Below are positions 27,741 through 36,074 of a stretch of DNA of 64,000 bases, in pieces (position 1 is the stretch's first letter; each line of letters begins with the position of its first letter). Source of the stretch: Candidatus Helarchaeota archaeon (lineage in GTDB: Archaea; Asgardarchaeota; Lokiarchaeia; Helarchaeales; RDOG01); assembly GCA_019058315.1 (NCBI GenBank), contig JAHPZH010000001.1, forward strand, positions 1,105,432 to 1,169,431, in the 5' to 3' direction. The notes under the pieces are model-generated. The model was not told the origin of the DNA. It saw only the letters and a list, made by a program, of their open reading frames with translations, and searched no databases. Position numbers and translations under genes: made by a program.

Positions 27741-27917
27741 ATGACTGATATGATTTCTTGTGAATGCTTAAAGTGTCATTATAACTTCGAATTAAAAAGA
27801 GAAACTGTGAACAAATTAATTAATGGAGAATTATCGATCAATTGTCCCGATTGTGGTGTTGATTTGAAGTTTACAGAAATTATTGAAGATAACTTCGCTA
27901 TGGGTTCTCCGATTTGA
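27741..27917 (+). CDS. Small zinc-ribbon protein
   Basis: ATG at 27741; CLKC...CPDCG pair in 58 aa; 20-nt convergent overlap with the next gene. Confidence 0.65.
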   Translation: MTDMISCECLKCHYNFELKRETVNKLINGELSINCPDCGVDLKFTEIIEDNFAMGSPI

Positions 27918-30399
27918 AATCATGTTGAAACCCCTTATTTAATTCTAATTTTTCTTTAAATCCAATTGATTTTCCATTTAGTATTACTTCACATTTATCT
28001 TCGGGTGAATTTCGACCTTTAAATAGAATATATTTTTTTCCAGGGATAATATCAATAAATATTTTAACAGATTGAGGTTCAAACTTAAAGGATTTTATTA
28101 TAATTCCATCAATTCCCCAAACCAATTTTTCTTTAAAATCTATAAATATATCTCCAAAATGCTTTTTTACATAGGCAGTAGCAGATGCAGAAGTTCCAAC
28201 GCCCCAATCGAACATAATATAGCCAGGTACACGTAAATCATTCCCTGAATGACCATAATTTTCTGTAACACACCCTCTATCAACCCCATCAAGAGTTTCA
28301 ATACCTTCTAGATTACCAGGACATTGTTCTTTATATTCTTTCAGTAATTGCATCGCCCAGCACGCTCTTAAGGTAGCAATTCCTCTCTCCATATACTCTT
28401 TTTTCCCTGTTATTAAGTAATATTCCATATAAACTCTAACAAATAGTCCTTGACGGGCATCACTTAATTCAGCATCAGTATTTTGGCAACCAAATCCTCC
28501 AAATGTATTGTAATTAATATACGGTATGTTCCAGACTTGTTGAAATAGAGATAATATGGCAAGAATACGTTCTCCAGATTCTAAATATTTGCTATTTTGA
28601 GTCGCTTGATATAATTCTTTGAATCCTTCAGCACCCCAATAAATACATAGATTATTCATTGCATGACTTTTAGTATAAATATCATAATAATTCATTGGGA
28701 GCTTAGTGCATGAAAAAAATGGTTCATAATCATGCCATTTATCTATAGGGATGATTTCATTTTGAAGATATTGCGCAATTTTTTCTGCAATTGGAATTAT
28801 TCTTTCATTTTTTGAGATTTTATGAAGTTCCATTAAAAACATTAGTGGAGCACCAGAACTAGCCGAATTTATTAATATATCATTGATAATCGGCTTATTA
28901 TCTTCATCGAAACTCAGATAAGTAGGGATTGCTCCATTATCTAACTGGATTTTTTCTAAAAGATTCAATAATTCATTACTTTTTGTCAAGATATCTTCAT
29001 TTTTATCATAATCTTGATAATATTTGAGTGCCCAATACATCGCAAGGCAAGAATCTACAACATGAAATAAATCCGTAAATACAAAAGCTTTTACACCATT
29101 AACAAATGAAACTTCTGTTGAATCAGGAGCTGCTGGTAAAACAACACTAGGGAATAAGCCACTAGATCTGGGAAGGTTTAAAAGTGTATTTAATACTCTA
29201 TTGCCTTTATCAACCAATTTTGAATCATTCCACAGTTTTCCAAAATATTTTAGGGCGTATCCCGTCCTAATATTAAGAAACCACGCATTATTCCAAAGTT
29301 CGGCTGGTCTTTCAATAAGGGCATTATGTCGAGTGAGTCTATCAAACTGTTTGATCCAAAATGGACTATTTGAAAGAGCGAGTACTACTTTACTAAATGA
29401 AGATTCTTGGTCAAATAGCTCATCCTTTACCCTTTTACGATAGTGTCTTTCAAATCTCCTAGTTTTTATGAACTTTACTCGTTGCTTTTTCCCCATCCAT
29501 GATCTATGCCAACTTCCTCCACAATCAACATTATTTAATTTAAAATTTCCCCAAAAATTATGCCTCTCAATTGCTTTAAAGCCTTCATCAGCATTAATAT
29601 CATAAGGCAAAATTTGGGGAGTTAAATCTTGGTATAAAAGATTTTTTCCATATTTATTCCAAAGAAATTCATTAATATATTGTAGAATTTCTGGAACCGA
29701 TGCACTATTAAAGACTTTTATATAGTACCCAAATGATAAATTGGTGTTTGGCTTTATTTTCATTCTTCTTTTACGCTCAAACATGATATGATAAACAGGT
29801 TTATATCTTCCAAACCCATAATAGATCCTAGGTTTGTTACCGTTTTTCTCATATTTTAAATTTAAATTCATAATAGTTTGAAAAGGCCTATTTTTTCCTA
29901 AAATCTCTAAATCTGGTATTAATGCAAATGCTAATTTACCTTTTTTATATATAATGGCAGGGGAGCGAAATACATGATCTGGAATAACATAATTTTTATT
30001 GGGACGTAGATGTGGAACCCATTTAAAATCAGGATTGTCGCCTAACAAAATTGAATAATTCGCAATGAGACTTGATAATTTTAACTTTTTTTTATTTTTT
30101 ATTGTATATTTAAAATGTATAATATCGTTTAATGTTATATCTAAATTGATAAACATTTCTGAGTCATTTAATTCATAAATTAATTTATTTTCACTCCTAT
30201 CCTTAAATGACAGGACTTTTGAATGCCAATTTTTACCTTCACAAAATAACAGGGTTGAGAAGTCAGAAAAACTACTGAGAATCGGAATCCAATCTCTTTT
30301 TTCTCTTATCTCTATTCCCTCTGCAGTTTTTGTGTCATCCTGTCCAATTATTATCCTTACTAATTCATTATTTAGATTATTTTCTTGAATTTTTAACAC
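27898..30399 (-). CDS. Large hypothetical protein, possible (alpha/alpha)6 glycoside hydrolase/phosphorylase-like fold
   Basis: 833 aa; beta-rich N-terminus, then helical hairpin repeats (Y...G/T+..YL..GER; EYYLITGKKEYMERG; QLDNGAIP). Confidence 0.55.
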   Translation of the reverse strand: MLKIQENNLNNELVRIIIGQDDTKTAEGIEIREKRDWIPILSSFSDFSTLLFCEGKNWHSKVLSFKDRSENKLIYELNDSEMFINLDITLNDIIHFKYTIKNKKKLKLSSLIANYSILLGDNPDFKWVPHLRPNKNYVIPDHVFRSPAIIYKKGKLAFALIPDLEILGKNRPFQTIMNLNLKYEKNGNKPRIYYGFGRYKPVYHIMFERKRRMKIKPNTNLSFGYYIKVFNSASVPEILQYINEFLWNKYGKNLLYQDLTPQILPYDINADEGFKAIERHNFWGNFKLNNVDCGGSWHRSWMGKKQRVKFIKTRRFERHYRKRVKDELFDQESSFSKVVLALSNSPFWIKQFDRLTRHNALIERPAELWNNAWFLNIRTGYALKYFGKLWNDSKLVDKGNRVLNTLLNLPRSSGLFPSVVLPAAPDSTEVSFVNGVKAFVFTDLFHVVDSCLAMYWALKYYQDYDKNEDILTKSNELLNLLEKIQLDNGAIPTYLSFDEDNKPIINDILINSASSGAPLMFLMELHKISKNERIIPIAEKIAQYLQNEIIPIDKWHDYEPFFSCTKLPMNYYDIYTKSHAMNNLCIYWGAEGFKELYQATQNSKYLESGERILAILSLFQQVWNIPYINYNTFGGFGCQNTDAELSDARQGLFVRVYMEYYLITGKKEYMERGIATLRACWAMQLLKEYKEQCPGNLEGIETLDGVDRGCVTENYGHSGNDLRVPGYIMFDWGVGTSASATAYVKKHFGDIFIDFKEKLVWGIDGIIIKSFKFEPQSVKIFIDIIPGKKYILFKGRNSPEDKCEVILNGKSIGFKEKLELNKGFQHDFKSENP

Positions 30400-30529: not shown

Positions 30530-32326
30530 TTGAATCGGAAAAAACATAAGGGAAAAAAAATAATTAAATTTTTTAGCTTAAAAATAATAATTTTAGTTTC
30601 ATTTCTTATTGCTAATTTCCCAATCTTTTTGAAATCTTCATTTTCTTATAATCAAATAATTAAATTCGATAAAAAATCAGGTGCTTTACTCTTTAAAAGT
30701 TCAAATCATTGGCCATTATACAGCTATCCAGCAGATGGTTGGATTTTAGAAGCGGCTATGTCAGATGATGGTCAATACTTTGTTGTAGGAGCAAGTGAAA
30801 AAGTATTTTTTTATAATAGAAATATTTCGAGAGCTTTATGGGTTTATAACACAGGAGGATGGGTGAGATCTGTAGATATTACAAGAGATGGACAATATAT
30901 TGTTGCAGGGTGCTGGAATAGCAAGATAATCTTATTTAATCGAAGTGGTTCGATAATATGGGAATATAACACATCCGCAACTGTTGAAGGGGTAAGATTT
31001 TCAAAAGACTCTTATTATATTGTGGCAGGAAGTAGAGATAATAATGTTTATTTCTTTAATAGAACCACCAATTCTACACCAAATTGGATTTTTAATGTGG
31101 GTACACAAGTACAATCGGTGGCAATTTCAGAATATGGTAATTATATTGCAGTTGGATCTTATCAGCCAGAATGGAGGGTTCATCTATTAGATAGCTTCAG
31201 TCCCATTGAATTATGGAATTTTACTACTGGAGGAGCTATGTGTTCAATTGAAATGTCCGATGACGGTCAATTTATAGCTTCGGGCTCCTGGAATGAAGTT
31301 AGTTCGGTAAATAATAAATTTTATTTATTTAATAAGTCTCAATCATATCCAGTTTGGACTCATACCACAGGAAAATGGGCTTATGAAGTTGCGATGGATG
31401 CTGATGGGCTTTATTTCGCGGCAGGTGGTGGCGATTGCTATTTATATTTATTTAATAGAACTAGTAATGTTTCTCAGTGGAGCTTTAACACAAAAAGTTT
31501 TGTTACAGCCGTAGCAATATCTGAAAATAGTTCATATGTAATTGGAGGAAATTCTAATGGTGTTATTTACTGTTTCAATAGATCTAGTTCCAAACTATTA
31601 TGGACTTGTCAAGCAAATGATTATATAGATGCATTGGCTATTTCATCCGACAATCAATACATATTAGCTGCAAGCTCCGATATTGGGGACGGTAGAGTTG
31701 AAATTTATCATATAAATAAAATAGGTCCTGAACCTTTAGAAATCATATTTATGAAGTTAAGTTTATTATATGCATTATCCCAGAATTCTGGAACCCCAAA
31801 CCCTATTTTGATTCTCGTAATAATTTCTATTATTATTGGACTAATTTTAATTACATTCGTGTATTTATCGAGAAAAAGTAGATCAAGAGAACAATTCGAT
31901 GAAACTGATTACTTTGAGCATAGACCTACAGAAATATATTCCGAGACAACCTCACGTTTAATTAATTCTCATAAAATAATATGCCCGAATTGCGAAGTGG
32001 AAAATTTTGAGACAGTAAGAAAATGCACTAATTGTGGTACCAAATTCATTCAATGTAATATATGCAAAAGATCTATAGGTAAAGAAGAGATTGTATATTG
32101 TTCTTTTTGCAATACTCCATATCATAAATCTGAATTCCTCGAGTGGTTGAAAGTAAATGCTAGTTGTAAGGTCTGTAAAAGAGAAATGGATATGTGGGAA
32201 TTTCAGAGATATTTAGAAGAATTGGAAAACGGACAGATAGATATTTCAAAAAAATGCAATAATTGCCATAAATCTATACCAAAAGATGCGAATTTTTGTA
32301 TTTATTGTGGTGTTAAAACTAATTAA
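30530..32326 (+). CDS. Single-pass receptor-like protein: signal peptide, 8-bladed WD40/PQQ-like propeller, TM, Zn finger, RING-like domain, Zn ribbon
   Basis: 8 repeats W.(Y/F).T...V..VAISxDGxYIxAG; TM at about 31802-31870; Cys/His modules at 31982-32310. Confidence 0.85.
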   Translation: MNRKKHKGKKIIKFFSLKIIILVSFLIANFPIFLKSSFSYNQIIKFDKKSGALLFKSSNHWPLYSYPADGWILEAAMSDDGQYFVVGASEKVFFYNRNISRALWVYNTGGWVRSVDITRDGQYIVAGCWNSKIILFNRSGSIIWEYNTSATVEGVRFSKDSYYIVAGSRDNNVYFFNRTTNSTPNWIFNVGTQVQSVAISEYGNYIAVGSYQPEWRVHLLDSFSPIELWNFTTGGAMCSIEMSDDGQFIASGSWNEVSSVNNKFYLFNKSQSYPVWTHTTGKWAYEVAMDADGLYFAAGGGDCYLYLFNRTSNVSQWSFNTKSFVTAVAISENSSYVIGGNSNGVIYCFNRSSSKLLWTCQANDYIDALAISSDNQYILAASSDIGDGRVEIYHINKIGPEPLEIIFMKLSLLYALSQNSGTPNPILILVIISIIIGLILITFVYLSRKSRSREQFDETDYFEHRPTEIYSETTSRLINSHKIICPNCEVENFETVRKCTNCGTKFIQCNICKRSIGKEEIVYCSFCNTPYHKSEFLEWLKVNASCKVCKREMDMWEFQRYLEELENGQIDISKKCNNCHKSIPKDANFCIYCGVKTN

Positions 32327-32339
32327 TCAATTCAATTAT

Positions 32340-33125
32340 ATGATTTATATGCCAGTTTATACAGATTTAGCACGATTTCAAACGATGATAAGCTTATTTA
32401 TTTTTTTCATAATAGTTGGGATAATCAGATATTTAATTAGAAGGAATTCAGGGAAGATAATATTTGATATAATTTTATTATTTTTTATTTTAGGTTGGAA
32501 TGGGATTGTATGGGAGGTATTTTATCAAGGGAAAACTTATGTCTTTTTTGCAATGGGGTATTCAATTTTAACTTTGAGCATTCTACTCTATTTAATAATT
32601 TTTAGAAAACGTGTCTATCCTGAAAAACCTGAACCAGTTATTACACAAGAATATTCAGATACTTCAACAACAGTTATTGGATTAGATAATGAAATAGAGC
32701 AACCATTATCTTTGGAGGTAAGTGATGACCAATTAGATGATGATTTAATAGATTATTTCAATCCAATTGTTTGCCCAACATGTGGTAAAGAAAATGTAGG
32801 TGGTACAAAAGTTTGTGGCTCTTGTGACACTGAATTTCCTATATGTATTATTTGTAATAAACCGATAAATAAAGATGATATTGTTTTTTGCCCATTTTGT
32901 AAGCAAACTTATCATAAATTAGAATTTTTTGAGTGGTTAAAGACAGAAGAAGCATGTAAAAAATGTTTAAGAGCATTAGAATTATCAGAAATTTTGGAAA
33001 TTTTTAAGCAAGAAAGTGAACCTATTGAAACTTCATTTTTATGCCCTATCTGTAAAAAATTAATCCCGAATGATTCCCATTTCTGTATTTATTGTGGCAG
33101 TCGAATTCATGACTATTCAGATTGA
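32340..33125 (+). CDS. 3-TM membrane protein with Zn finger, RING-like domain and Zn ribbon
   Basis: In-frame ATG at 32340 or 32349, just after the upstream stop; three hydrophobic helices, acidic linker, Cys/His modules at 32772-33097. Confidence 0.85.
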   Translation: MIYMPVYTDLARFQTMISLFIFFIIVGIIRYLIRRNSGKIIFDIILLFFILGWNGIVWEVFYQGKTYVFFAMGYSILTLSILLYLIIFRKRVYPEKPEPVITQEYSDTSTTVIGLDNEIEQPLSLEVSDDQLDDDLIDYFNPIVCPTCGKENVGGTKVCGSCDTEFPICIICNKPINKDDIVFCPFCKQTYHKLEFFEWLKTEEACKKCLRALELSEILEIFKQESEPIETSFLCPICKKLIPNDSHFCIYCGSRIHDYSD

Positions 33126-33155: not shown

Positions 33156-34778
33156 TTATTGTTGAATATCAAGCATTAGTCGTTTGAATTGCTCAGGTGG
33201 ACATCCCTCTTCTTTCAAAGCTTTGGTCAATTTAGCAATCATTTTCTTTTCTATTTCTAATGTTTCTGGTTGCCCTGCAAGATTATTTTGAAAATTCGGA
33301 TCTTTTTTCCTATCAAATAAATAGTTTTGCTTATTTTTTTTAGACTGTCCTCCACCCATAACCATAAAAATTGGTGCAGGAATTTTCCATTGAGGTATTT
33401 TTACTCCAGGAATATAATATCCAGATTCGATATCTTTCGCGAAACTTTGAACTAACTCTTCAGCTTTTTCAAAACTAAGTTTTAGACCAAAAATTTCAGA
33501 ATATCTACAAATAGTTCCAGGAGATAACATAAGGGGAAAAACAGATGAATATTGATATATTTTCTTATTAGCATTAAAACCTCTTATATATGTATGATCC
33601 AACGTTGTTAAGCATGCACCGCTTCCAAAAATTCCATATAACATATAATCTCTTATGGTTTTGACCTCGTCTTTGAGTACTGGTATAAGTGATTTTCCAT
33701 CTATAAACATATTTTCATCTAATTTTTTACCTAATACATCTAATATAGTAGCTCGAATATCAACTATAGTTGAAAATGTTGTATCTATTCGTCTATTGCC
33801 CTTGATTTCAGGATGATAAATAATTAGAGGAATATTTGCAACATCTTCGAAGATTGGATGACCTTTACCGTATTGTTTGATTTTTTTATGTGGTTCAGCG
33901 AGTGCATGCCCATGATCTGTGGTCACAATAACACATGTATTTTTCCATAAATTGTATTGATCCATTTTCTCCCATATTTTGCCCAGCCATGCATCTACCA
34001 TAGATATTTTTCCACTATATTGGTTTCTAACAAATTGTAATTCTTCTTCTGAGGCTTCTTCAAAAAATTTCTTTAACATTCTAGCATTTTGGTAAGGAGG
34101 CCAGCAGGTAAAATTTTCATTATATGGTCCGTACATGGAACGATATGGTTCTGGGATATACCAAGGTTCATGTGGATCAAAACTTTCAATATGTAAAAAG
34201 AATTTTTCATGGGAATGATTCCTATCTAACCAATTACAAGCTGCTTGGATAACTTTTGGGGCATGAAAATCTTTTTCATCTTCAAAATGTTTTACATTTC
34301 TATAATAATGGGCATTTAATTTCGCAGGAGGTCTCCATTTGAGGTATGCTTTTACCCAATTAGGAAAGTTTTCTGGATCCTCAAGAGGTTCGCTAGAACT
34401 CACATCATACTCGTGTCCACGTATGAGATTTGTGAAAGAGTAATTCTCGTGGTATCCATGAACTCCCGTCCCCGGTTCCCAATAATGATAATGATCCGTA
34501 ACTAATGCAGTTACAGCTCCTAATCTTTCTGCTTCGTTCGGTAACAAACGATCAAATGGTTCTACAGCCCCCCAAAACTTCCATAAAAACTCATTCTTTC
34601 TTCCTGAAAAGAGTTCCCTTCTAGCAGGCATACAAGGAGCAGACCCTATAAAGTGATGATCAAAAACCACCCCTTTTTTAGCGAGTTTTGTAAGATTAGG
34701 AGTTTTGACTATTTTATTATCATAAGATTCAATATAGGATTTATTTAAACTATCTAAAAGGATAAAAATAACATTCAT
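33156..34778 (-). CDS. Cys-type sulfatase
   Basis: ILLDSL, SAPCMPARRELFSG (CxPxR), FDPHEPW, TTDHGH. Confidence 0.92.
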   Translation of the reverse strand: MNVIFILLDSLNKSYIESYDNKIVKTPNLTKLAKKGVVFDHHFIGSAPCMPARRELFSGRKNEFLWKFWGAVEPFDRLLPNEAERLGAVTALVTDHYHYWEPGTGVHGYHENYSFTNLIRGHEYDVSSSEPLEDPENFPNWVKAYLKWRPPAKLNAHYYRNVKHFEDEKDFHAPKVIQAACNWLDRNHSHEKFFLHIESFDPHEPWYIPEPYRSMYGPYNENFTCWPPYQNARMLKKFFEEASEEELQFVRNQYSGKISMVDAWLGKIWEKMDQYNLWKNTCVIVTTDHGHALAEPHKKIKQYGKGHPIFEDVANIPLIIYHPEIKGNRRIDTTFSTIVDIRATILDVLGKKLDENMFIDGKSLIPVLKDEVKTIRDYMLYGIFGSGACLTTLDHTYIRGFNANKKIYQYSSVFPLMLSPGTICRYSEIFGLKLSFEKAEELVQSFAKDIESGYYIPGVKIPQWKIPAPIFMVMGGGQSKKNKQNYLFDRKKDPNFQNNLAGQPETLEIEKKMIAKLTKALKEEGCPPEQFKRLMLDIQQ

Positions 34779-34877: not shown

Positions 34878-36074
34878 TTATATTTTAACTAATTTATAAT
34901 TTAGATTTCCGATTTTATTTTTCACTGCAGCATTAAACTGGAATGAAGTATCAGAAAGAGGCATGAGTGTATGGAATTTTTCTATTCCTGGTCCTAAGGA
35001 GTCTACCCATTTTCCGTCTTTATCCATTTTTGGAACTCCTGGCGCTGCAGTTTCTGCATCAACACATGCTTTATCAACTGCAACCGGGTCTACCGATCCA
35101 AAGATTCCCAAATCAGGGACAATTGGTGGCCCTGGATTGGAAGCACAATCACAATTTAAGACAACATCTAGGGCAAAATTTATGTAACGTATATTCTCTG
35201 GTCCAAACCCTGTAATTACTCCTTTAGCATTATCAATAAACCGATCAACAAAATCTGGAACATTTCTCCAATTTGAATTTATTGCTCGTTTTACCTTACA
35301 ATAATCATTACATGCCATACATCCGACACAAGAATCATCAATCATCAAAGTATCACTATTATATTTAATAGCACCAACTGGACAAACTTCTAAACAAATT
35401 TTATCACAGTCTGCATTCGCACATTTTTTCGGATTTATTTGAATACCATCGAAATGTGCGCGAAATTTATTCCGTTTAGTAACACATCCAATTCCTAACT
35501 GTTTAAGCGCACCACCAAATGCAGCCTGTCCGTGTCCTTTAAAATGGGCTATTACGATCATCTTATCGAAATCAAACAATCCTTTCCCAACAGAAACGTC
35601 TTTAAAATGGATACCATCAATTTTAATTATTTTTCCATCAATACCTTTTTCTCCATCTATAAATTTCAAAGGAGCACCAATTGTAGATTCTGAATAACCA
35701 TGTAATTGTGCAATATTTTCATGTTCTGATTCAGTTTTTCTAACACCCATGCAAATTACATGCTCATCTGACATTTTAATATGCTGTACTTTCATACCTA
35801 GTCCCATTGTTTCAATTAAAGTCGGAATACCACCCAAAGATTTTACAAAATCAACCACTTCATGTACATAGTCATGACGTAAATAACGAGTGTTATATCC
35901 CTCTCCAACATGGACTTTTATAGCAACTTTATCTCCAGGATTAATATTATCTAAAATTTTTTCTAAAATCAGACGGGTCTTTATTAAATTGTTAGTAACC
36001 ATATTTTTTTTTGTGTTTTTAAGAGCAACCACTTCATTTGGTAATGCCCAATATACAATAGATTCGTTTGACAT
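34878..36074 (-). CDS. DUF362 family protein with ferredoxin-type [4Fe-4S] domain
   Basis: VAIKVHVGE, AHFKGH..FGGALKQLGIGC, CLEVCPVGAI/CVGCMAC, CDC, DPVAVDKAC. Confidence 0.88.
   Translation of the reverse strand: MSNESIVYWALPNEVVALKNTKKNMVTNNLIKTRLILEKILDNINPGDKVAIKVHVGEGYNTRYLRHDYVHEVVDFVKSLGGIPTLIETMGLGMKVQHIKMSDEHVICMGVRKTESEHENIAQLHGYSESTIGAPLKFIDGEKGIDGKIIKIDGIHFKDVSVGKGLFDFDKMIVIAHFKGHGQAAFGGALKQLGIGCVTKRNKFRAHFDGIQINPKKCANADCDKICLEVCPVGAIKYNSDTLMIDDSCVGCMACNDYCKVKRAINSNWRNVPDFVDRFIDNAKGVITGFGPENIRYINFALDVVLNCDCASNPGPPIVPDLGIFGSVDPVAVDKACVDAETAAPGVPKMDKDGKWVDSLGPGIEKFHTLMPLSDTSFQFNAAVKNKIGNLNYKLVKI

Follow-up and report, generated by a model that had tools for sequence, protein, structure and literature searches.

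The window analysed here, a 64,000-nucleotide stretch of DNA from a Candidatus Helarchaeota archaeon (assembly GCA_019058315.1, contig JAHPZH010000001.1, positions 1,105,432 to 1,169,431 of the forward strand), has a G+C content of about 30% and contains two neighboring open reading frames, ORF1 and ORF2, whose products end in paralogous tails of zinc ribbon, RING-like cross-brace, helix and second zinc ribbon. The reading that we favor, with some reserve, is that ORF1 and ORF2 form a two-gene unit of putative membrane-anchored ubiquitin ligases drawn from a large Asgard family of zinc ribbon-RING proteins. Among known prokaryotic units, the two-domain zinc ribbon-RING cassette that defines this family comes closest in appearance to the C-terminal domains of IFT-A and GATOR2/SEACAT subunits.

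A zinc ribbon-RING cassette shared by a large protein family

The motif CxxC-x10-CxxC-x6-CxxC-x11-CxxC-x4-H-x2-E-x3-WL-x5-CxxC is the exact translation of positions 31982-32176 on the plus strand, corresponding to residues 485-549 of ORF1. An earlier note on this DNA, made from the sequence alone, had reported this spacing for both paralogues, and it indeed recurs without deviation in ORF2 (32772-32966). The minus strand holds no open reading frame of at least 80 amino acids across the zinc module. Using phmmer, we compared the ORF1 tail with 1.84 billion representative sequences and obtained 500 matches at E ≤ 1e-3 and 47 at E ≤ 1e-10, with the complete motif present in 91 of the best 150. 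Each of the eleven Cys/His ligands is invariant across the alignment of these 91 sequences. Given this and the 500 matches, the motif cannot be put down to a chance clustering of cysteines.

The cassette is composed of a C4 zinc ribbon packed ahead of a cross-brace RING with the ligand pairs C-C, C-C, H-[H/E] and C-C. In ORF1 the RING pairs are C509/C512, C524/C527, H532/E535 and C546/C549, seven of the eight ligands being canonical. At the sixth ligand, 53 of the 91 family members have His and 38 have Glu, and the Glu is invariant in the 30 sequences closest to ORF1. ORF2 has the ORF1-type spacing with Glu at the same position, a last pair in the form CKKC and then Leu where a basic residue is expected; its tail shares 42% identity with that of ORF1 over 118 residues. 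Modeling the tail with AlphaFold2 from the single sequence gave an unusable result (predicted local distance difference test, pLDDT, of 39), so the alignment-based model was used instead, with a pLDDT of 90.7. In most family members the cassette is found at the C-terminus of membrane proteins.

Pfam models recognize parts of this unit across the family. Matches to zf-RING_2 were obtained for 86 of the 91 members (best E 2.6e-10), to Prok-RING_1 (PF14446) for 75 at E ≤ 0.01 (best 1.6e-10) and to DZR (PF12773) for 84. Prok-RING_1, however, aligns over model positions 6-33 of 54 only, and neither it nor DZR describes the whole ribbon-plus-RING unit. NCBI names family members only as "zinc ribbon domain-containing protein" or "hypothetical protein". 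RING ligases, Prok-RING families and ubiquitin operons are already known from Asgard archaea; the two-part cassette was not described in the literature searched, and no paper was found that links Asgard proteins with the zinc tails of GATOR2, SEA or IFT-A.

The cassette resembles the C-terminal domains of IFT-A and GATOR2/SEACAT subunits

A family profile built from the alignment of the 91 full-motif members was searched against 177,635 PDB sequences and the best 60 listed matches were examined. Matches over the whole unit (profile positions 4-70/76) were to WDR19/IFT144 (1.9e-7, positions 4-76), further IFT144 chains and IFT122 chains, MIOS (1.6e-5), WDR24 (7.4e-5) and WDR59 (1.3e-4). Sea4 was matched partially at 6e-4, its best stretch being positions 12-39. 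The only other full-span matches among these 60 were a WD40-repeat protein (8hme_E) and Pirh2. The alignment of WDR24 residues 717-781 to profile positions 4-70 is nearly free of net gaps.

Structure comparison agrees with these matches. When the tail model was searched with Foldseek against 350,542 PDB chains, the top 18 were exclusively GATOR2, SEA and IFT-A tails (E 1e-4 to 3e-3; MIOS 1.3e-4), and the first ordinary RING, RNF126, appeared at rank 44. Superposition of Foldseek's best 1000 with VIA-align placed WDR19 first (Z 9.6, 2.0 Å over 75 residues, 23% identity), three Z-units above the rest, followed by IFT122 (Z 6.5, 2.6 Å, 69 residues), MIOS (Z 6.2, 5.6 Å), WDR24 (Z 6.0, 5.9 Å) and Sea4 (Z 5.6). 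An independent all-against-representatives structure run agrees with this ranking. Model residues 2-74 pair with WDR24 715-787, in the same register as the sequence alignment. A shape search of the ESM Atlas returned eukaryotic IFT121/IFT144/WDR19 tail clusters, with template modeling (TM) scores of 0.46-0.58 for IFT121/IFT144. The earlier note had named a generic DZR plus unrelated RING/PHD families as the best matches that would speak against its proposal; the best full-length matches are instead the IFT-A and GATOR2 tails.

In IFT-A (IFT144/WDR19, IFT122 and IFT121/WDR35; PDB 8FH3, 8BBG, 8F5O/8F5P, 8HMC, 9A2D) a C4 zinc ribbon is likewise followed by a RING-like cross-brace, in the same order and with the same loop lengths. 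The eukaryotic proteins with these tails are soluble and have two propellers plus a TPR solenoid ahead of them, whereas the window cassette comes after a membrane helix and continues into an additional helix and a second ribbon. The RING of WDR19 furthermore lacks the first CxxC and has Leu and Glu at ligands 5 and 6, while ORF1 and ORF2 keep seven of the eight RING ligands. In human WDR19 (1251-1322), RING site 1 is degenerate, and its Glu aligns with that of the window proteins.

GATOR2/SEACAT subunits (MIOS, WDR24, WDR59, Sea2/3/4; PDB 7UHY, 9LVJ, 9OTI, 8ADL) share the ligand spacing of the Asgard cassette, but the two sub-domains are differently oriented, with a root mean square deviation (rmsd) of 5-6 Å and Z of about 6. 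One GATOR2 tail (chains 9dx0_D and 9dx2_H; its span equals WDR59 902-958 of 7uhy_D) reads CxxC-x8-CxxC-x6-CxxC-x10-CxxC-x4-H-x2-H-x3-WF. The spacing that the earlier note had given for WDR24 was right in kind. A His-type paralogue of the source genome matches the GATOR2 tail by plain phmmer at E 0.004-0.03, with C-x-I-C ... C-x2-C-G-x3-H-x2-H-M-x-E-W in common. The matches do not favor GATOR2 over IFT-A; the IFT-A tails are in fact the better fit.

By these matches, the cassette belongs to one type of two-domain unit with the IFT-A and GATOR2/SEACAT tails and is plausibly homologous to them at the domain level. The competing account is convergence, by which a Prok-RING_1-like prokaryotic RING with a generic ribbon arose independently of the eukaryotic tails; we consider this quite unlikely. 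It gains from the reverse searches with eukaryotic Pfam models, all of which were sub-threshold: for zf-RING_16 (PF17120) the ORF1 tail gave E 3.1 and the genome at best 24 bits, under the cut-off of 27.4 bits, with control genomes also matching; zinc_ribbon_16 (PF17034) found nothing in the source genome; and for Zf_2nd_IFT121 (PF23145) the ORF1 tail reached 17.1 bits and the genome at most 18.6 bits against a cut-off of 25, with controls matching too. Of the checks suggested in the earlier note, Foldseek put GATOR2, SEA and IFT-A on top and zinc_ribbon_16 stayed below its cut-off. Family members at E ≤ 0.01 numbered 20 of 91 for zf-RING_16 and 20 of 91 for zinc_ribbon_16, and Zn_ribbon_IFT122_C touched 7 of 91. 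Convergence is also favored by the RING half, which matches RING-H2 ligases as well as it does IFT-A/GATOR2 tails, by the poor superposition of the GATOR2 tails as a unit and by the unrelated N-terminal architectures. E-values of 1e-7 to 1e-4 cannot prove homology of such small Cys-rich domains. On the other side stand the identical ligand order and near-identical loop lengths across six metal-binding pairs, the shared register of sequence and structure alignments to WDR24, the restriction of full-span matches among the best 60 listed to IFT-A, GATOR2 and SEA tails apart from the two proteins named, the close fit of WDR19 and the occurrence of the cassette in Asgard-labelled lineages only, with one exception by label.

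The RING half resembles catalytic RING-H2 ligases

The single-sequence search with ORF1 matched RNF126 at 3.6e-4. Profile matches confined to the RING (positions 28-76) comprise RNF24, RNF4, RNF126 and Arkadia, at 4e-7 to 1e-6, together with RNF38 and EL5 in an overall range of 4e-7 to 1e-5, and RING and U-box domains superpose on the model with Z of 5-6.6 and rmsd of 1-3 Å over 45-57 residues. By itself, the RING half finds its nearest counterparts in catalytic RING-H2 ligases. The cassette shares the cross-brace fold, the C-x-I-C, the helix Trp and the basic residue with such ligases (RNF126, RNF24, RNF38, Arkadia/RNF165, EL5) and with the archaeal small RING finger E3 (srfp) of E1/E2/RING operons; in these ligases the three sequence features are required to bind and activate the E2. 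It differs in that ligands 3 and 4 form a CxxC knuckle, a PHD-like C4 spacing, instead of the C-x-H of RING-H2 ligases; in having Glu at ligand 6 in the window proteins, where most of the family has His; and in its obligatory N-terminal zinc ribbon. Its genes also lie outside ubiquitin operons, unlike those of srfp. Many of the eukaryotic RING matches are themselves membrane-anchored, among them RNF24, EL5/ATL, RNF13, ZNRF3, Hrd1 and gp78.

Ubiquitylation by the Caldiarchaeum RING E3 depends on residues I30, W58 and R69 (PMC5654768). At the positions expected to contact an E2, the family has C-x-[IVL]-C in 90 of 91 members, Trp in 74, CPxC in 77 and Lys or Arg after the last Cys in 56. ORF1 has Ile511, Trp539 and Lys550, the latter directly after the last Cys, and Lys replaces the Pro of CPxC. 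The source genome encodes five E2 proteins, three to five ubiquitins and E1-like proteins, and contains three clusters of E1-like, E2 and RING-only genes (Table 1); a ubiquitin gene is found in the clusters on contigs 10 and 2, and no ubiquitin match was obtained in the cluster on contig 6. E2 genes lie at C10:104171-104539, C2:154995-155471 and C6:268308-268730. The genome thus has a multi-copy, eukaryote-like ubiquitylation system. Because the family keeps the positions that match I30, W58 and R69 and the genome has ubiquitin clusters, we read the cassette proteins as candidate membrane-anchored RING ligases. The tails would bind an E2 charged with ubiquitin and direct the ubiquitylation of targets in or near the membrane. 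The external propeller of ORF1, if glycosylated as predicted below, could bind a ligand or partner and so give binding specificity, which would make ORF1 a receptor-type ligase with a logic comparable to that of eukaryotic transmembrane RING ligases. ORF2 may be its multi-pass partner or paralogue.

The window pair belongs to a derived subtype

We compared Glu-type and His-type members of the family. The median tail after the RING is 47 residues in the Glu type and 11.5 in the His type, an extra C-terminal ribbon occurs in 22 of 38 versus 4 of 50, and the CPxC proline is kept in 24 of 38 versus 50 of 50; the seed query contained the tail, with which these differences have to be read. The window pair is a derived subtype with Glu for His at ligand 6, the E2-contact Pro lost in both proteins and a helix and second ribbon added. 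The second zinc ribbon of ORF1 is matched by Pfam Zn_Ribbon_1 and DZR, and the AlphaFold2 model has the helix at model residues 76-87 and strands at 94-105. The invariance of Cys509, Cys512, His532 and Glu535 suggests that zinc site 1 is kept, with Glu535 as a carboxylate ligand.

The closest tail to that of ORF1 (55% identity) belongs to a metagenomic protein of 399 amino acids, an unrelated multi-pass membrane protein that shares no propeller with ORF1. Its RING has lost the last CxxC pair (CCKSY) and keeps the rest. Going by this sequence, the last zinc pair is not untouchable in the Glu-type subtype.

Several points weigh against a ligase role for the window proteins. The ORF1 module scores 22.7 bits with zf-RING_2, for which the cut-off is 27.3, and both window proteins score 27.3-27.8 bits with Prok-RING_1, for which it is 29.1. 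Both have Glu instead of His or Cys at ligand 6 and Lys for the E2-contact Pro; ORF2 has the Ile and the Trp, but Lys for the Pro of CPxC and Leu for the basic residue. By these residues, the ligase activity of ORF1 and ORF2 may be weakened or lost. No ubiquitin-system gene adjoins the pair. Finally, the tails closest in structure, those of IFT-A and GATOR2, serve chiefly in assembly, and the RINGs of the SEA complex heterodimerize and have a structural role (PMC9646525).

The tails could be non-catalytic assembly modules, as in Sea2/3/4, GATOR2 and IFT-A, with the tails of ORF1 and ORF2 or of other paralogues pairing into a hetero-oligomeric membrane complex that transfers no ubiquitin. The erosion of the E2-contact residues keeps this alternative alive, and we judge it unlikely rather than remote. 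The nature of the nearest structural matches fits it, as do the heterodimerizing SEA RINGs, the Leu and Glu that WDR19 too has at ligands 5 and 6, and the co-oriented, overlapping or adjacent arrangement of ORF1 and ORF2. Nine of the 13 Glu-type genes of the source genome also stand in tandem arrays, and a second tandem pair, with consecutive accessions on one contig, is present in a "Hodarchaeota" metagenome-assembled genome; simple duplication, however, predicts tandem arrays equally well. The ORF1 tail is also nearer to other paralogues (55-58%) than to ORF2 (42-43%), and the Ile and Trp of the E2 surface are kept in both proteins, with the basic residue kept in ORF1.

Distribution and architectures in Asgard archaea

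The source genome (5.79 Mb in 12 contigs, 94% complete) has about 16 full cassette copies; 15 follow the strict motif, and 13 of these are of the Glu type. Tandem arrays of two to three Glu-type genes with differing membrane parts are found at C2:109771-112861, C11:141260-142925 and C11:207866-210254 (contig:positions). Local duplication seems to be the way in which the family grows.

Of 301 genomes sampled across the phylum, 205 carry the cassette at E ≤ 1e-8, often in at least 10 copies, and named records come from Heimdall-, Frey-, Odin-, Baldr-, Hel-, Hod- and Promethearchaeota. One well-sampled family yielded no cassette match in 76 genomes, most of them 90-99% complete, whereas almost every other family has the cassette; a lineage-specific loss may explain the absence. 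In a pattern-limited scan with a narrow His-type alignment, which is no census, the cassette was met in Asgard-labelled lineages with one exception by label. The exception is DATKZI010000014.1, a 447 kb contig labelled Candidatus Bathyarchaeia, whose cassette protein is 64% identical to the Heimdall type; the contig may come from a mislabelled or misbinned genome, or the gene may have been transferred. A pattern scan for the Glu subtype found no relative among GTDB species representatives.

Large cassette proteins in other Asgard genomes have a signal anchor, a right-handed beta-helix/NosD, Ig-like, fn3 or DUF2341 part and a membrane helix in addition to the cassette; a further group is soluble, with winged-helix/PCI domains. 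In other genomes the cassette usually ends a surface or membrane protein on its cytoplasmic side. An architecture of propeller, solenoid and tail is absent from the seven largest cassette proteins examined, a small sample in which some proteins have no Pfam domain. As the same cassette is carried by many unrelated domains, the propeller-plus-RING combination of ORF1 is one of many shuffles and no conserved GATOR2-like architecture.

Topology and gene layout

Table 1 Features of the ORF1-ORF2 locus (window positions) and ubiquitin-gene clusters of the source genome (contig:positions).
Feature	Position	Strand	Description
ORF1	30530..32326	+	598 aa; predicted to run from a signal anchor through an external beta-propeller and a single membrane helix to a cytoplasmic tail (zinc ribbon, RING, helix, zinc ribbon)
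ORF1 signal anchor or signal peptide	30560..30631	+	aa 11-34, after a Lys-rich start; from hydropathy scan
ORF1 WD40/PQQ-like beta-propeller	30662..31744	+	about 8 blades; approximate bounds aa 45-405
ORF1 transmembrane helix	31802..31867	+	aa 425-446
ORF1 zinc ribbon 1	31982..32035	+	aa 485-502; CxxC-x10-CxxC; two-strand ribbon in the AlphaFold2 model
ORF1 RING-like cross-brace	32054..32176	+	aa 509-549; C-x2-C-x11-C-x2-C-x4-H-x2-E-x10-C-x2-C
ORF1 helix and second zinc ribbon	32189..32308	+	helix aa 554-567, ribbon aa 576-593
ORF2	32286..33125	+	279 aa; 3-4 membrane helices, acidic linker, paralogous zinc ribbon-RING-helix-zinc ribbon tail
ORF2 zinc ribbon 1 and RING	32772..32966	+	aa 163-227
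ORF2 second zinc ribbon	33042..33095	+	aa 253-270
Clusters of E1-like, E2 and RING-only genes	C10:103165-106226; C2:152943-157174; C6:266123-272361		source genome

The propeller of ORF1 scores 97.6 bits with Beta-prop_EML_2, 77 bits with WD40 and 36 bits with PQQ_2 in Pfam, and its homologues are Asgard surface propeller proteins that cover the propeller part only. It contains 11 N-x-S/T sequons, compared with 5.1 ± 2.0 in shuffled sequences (at least 11 in 13 of 2000 shuffles), several of which recur at one blade position (FNRS/FNRT). The propeller is probably extracellular and glycosylated. The membrane helix is followed by a basic SRKSRSR stretch, which by the positive-inside rule places the tail in the cytoplasm; the most likely topology thus has the propeller outside the cell and the zinc tail inside. 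A Pfam scan of ORF1 detected neither an alpha-solenoid nor a TPR region. In a database search restricted to proteins of similar length, no second example of the full ORF1 architecture was found.

This topology bears on the proposal of the earlier note that the module is an archaeal relative of the nutrient-sensing GATOR2 zinc module. At the domain level the relationship has the profile and Foldseek matches behind it; an affinity specific to GATOR2 and the link to nutrient sensing did not hold up. That ORF1 could be the archaeal counterpart of a GATOR2/SEACAT subunit in nutrient sensing is, in our view, extremely improbable. All that speaks for it is the list of domains, a propeller and a ribbon-RING tail, and their ligand spacing. 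The GATOR2 subunits are cytosolic propeller-solenoid scaffolds with heterodimerizing tails (PMC9646525), whereas ORF1 has a sequon-rich propeller predicted to lie outside the cell behind a signal anchor, a membrane helix, no solenoid and no nutrient-sensing context. Its topology does not agree with that of a cytosolic coat-like scaffold and contradicts this reading. The kinship of its propeller with Asgard surface propellers, the lack of the full architecture in any other protein of the similar-length search and the better fit of the IFT-A tails likewise count against it. The GATOR1 models IML1 (Iml1/DEPDC5) and NPR2 (Npr2) found no match in the 94%-complete genome, but the controls were equally silent, so this result is uninformative. 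ORF1 and ORF2 are not GATOR2 subunits and nothing links them to nutrient sensing. The note's caveat that the shared WD40-plus-RING architecture might be convergent was correct: given the external propeller and a cassette that follows many unrelated domains, the combination in ORF1 is coincidental.

ORF1 and ORF2 overlap by 41 nt; with an alternative ATG at 32340, ORF2 begins 13 nt past the ORF1 stop. Both flanking genes lie on the opposite strand, and ORF1 and ORF2 therefore constitute a two-gene unit. The database gene call for ORF1 has 565 amino acids from an internal TTG start and thus omits the Lys-rich start and the signal anchor (window 30530-30631). The longer frame begins at the TTG at 30530, which has a Shine-Dalgarno-like GGGG stretch about 13 nt upstream, and this start fits the topology and the sequon-rich propeller of ORF1 better than the 565-residue call.

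The genes around the pair are metabolic (sulfatase, DUF362, thiolase, decarboxylase). A sulfatase-family gene (33156-34778, minus strand) and a DUF362 gene with a 4Fe-4S-type motif (34878-36074, minus strand) are convergent to ORF1-ORF2, with no evident functional link. An open reading frame of 833 amino acids (27898-30399, minus strand) points away from ORF1; Pfam gave no match to its product at E ≤ 1e-5.

Implications for Asgard ubiquitylation and the origin of eukaryotic tails

The IFT-A and GATOR2/SEACAT tails now have a concrete prokaryotic look-alike, to date met in no lineage but the one nearest to eukaryotes, and the origin of these tails becomes testable. As a tentative proposal, with a low chance of being right, the Asgard cassette would be ancestral to the IFT-A/GATOR2 tail modules: pairs like ORF1 and ORF2 would already pair their tails in a receptor-type transmembrane ubiquitin ligase, and the eukaryotic tails would be retired ligase domains from the archaeal host. 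The subtype that has expanded in the source genome, in which one structural zinc position is always Glu, represents unusual RING chemistry. These findings are of interest to the eukaryogenesis and ubiquitin fields and for the evolutionary origin of the IFT-A and GATOR2 tails. That most cassettes are found on surface or membrane proteins suggests a link, in archaea already, between outward-facing domains and ubiquitylation in the cytoplasm, the principle on which eukaryotic receptor-type E3s operate.

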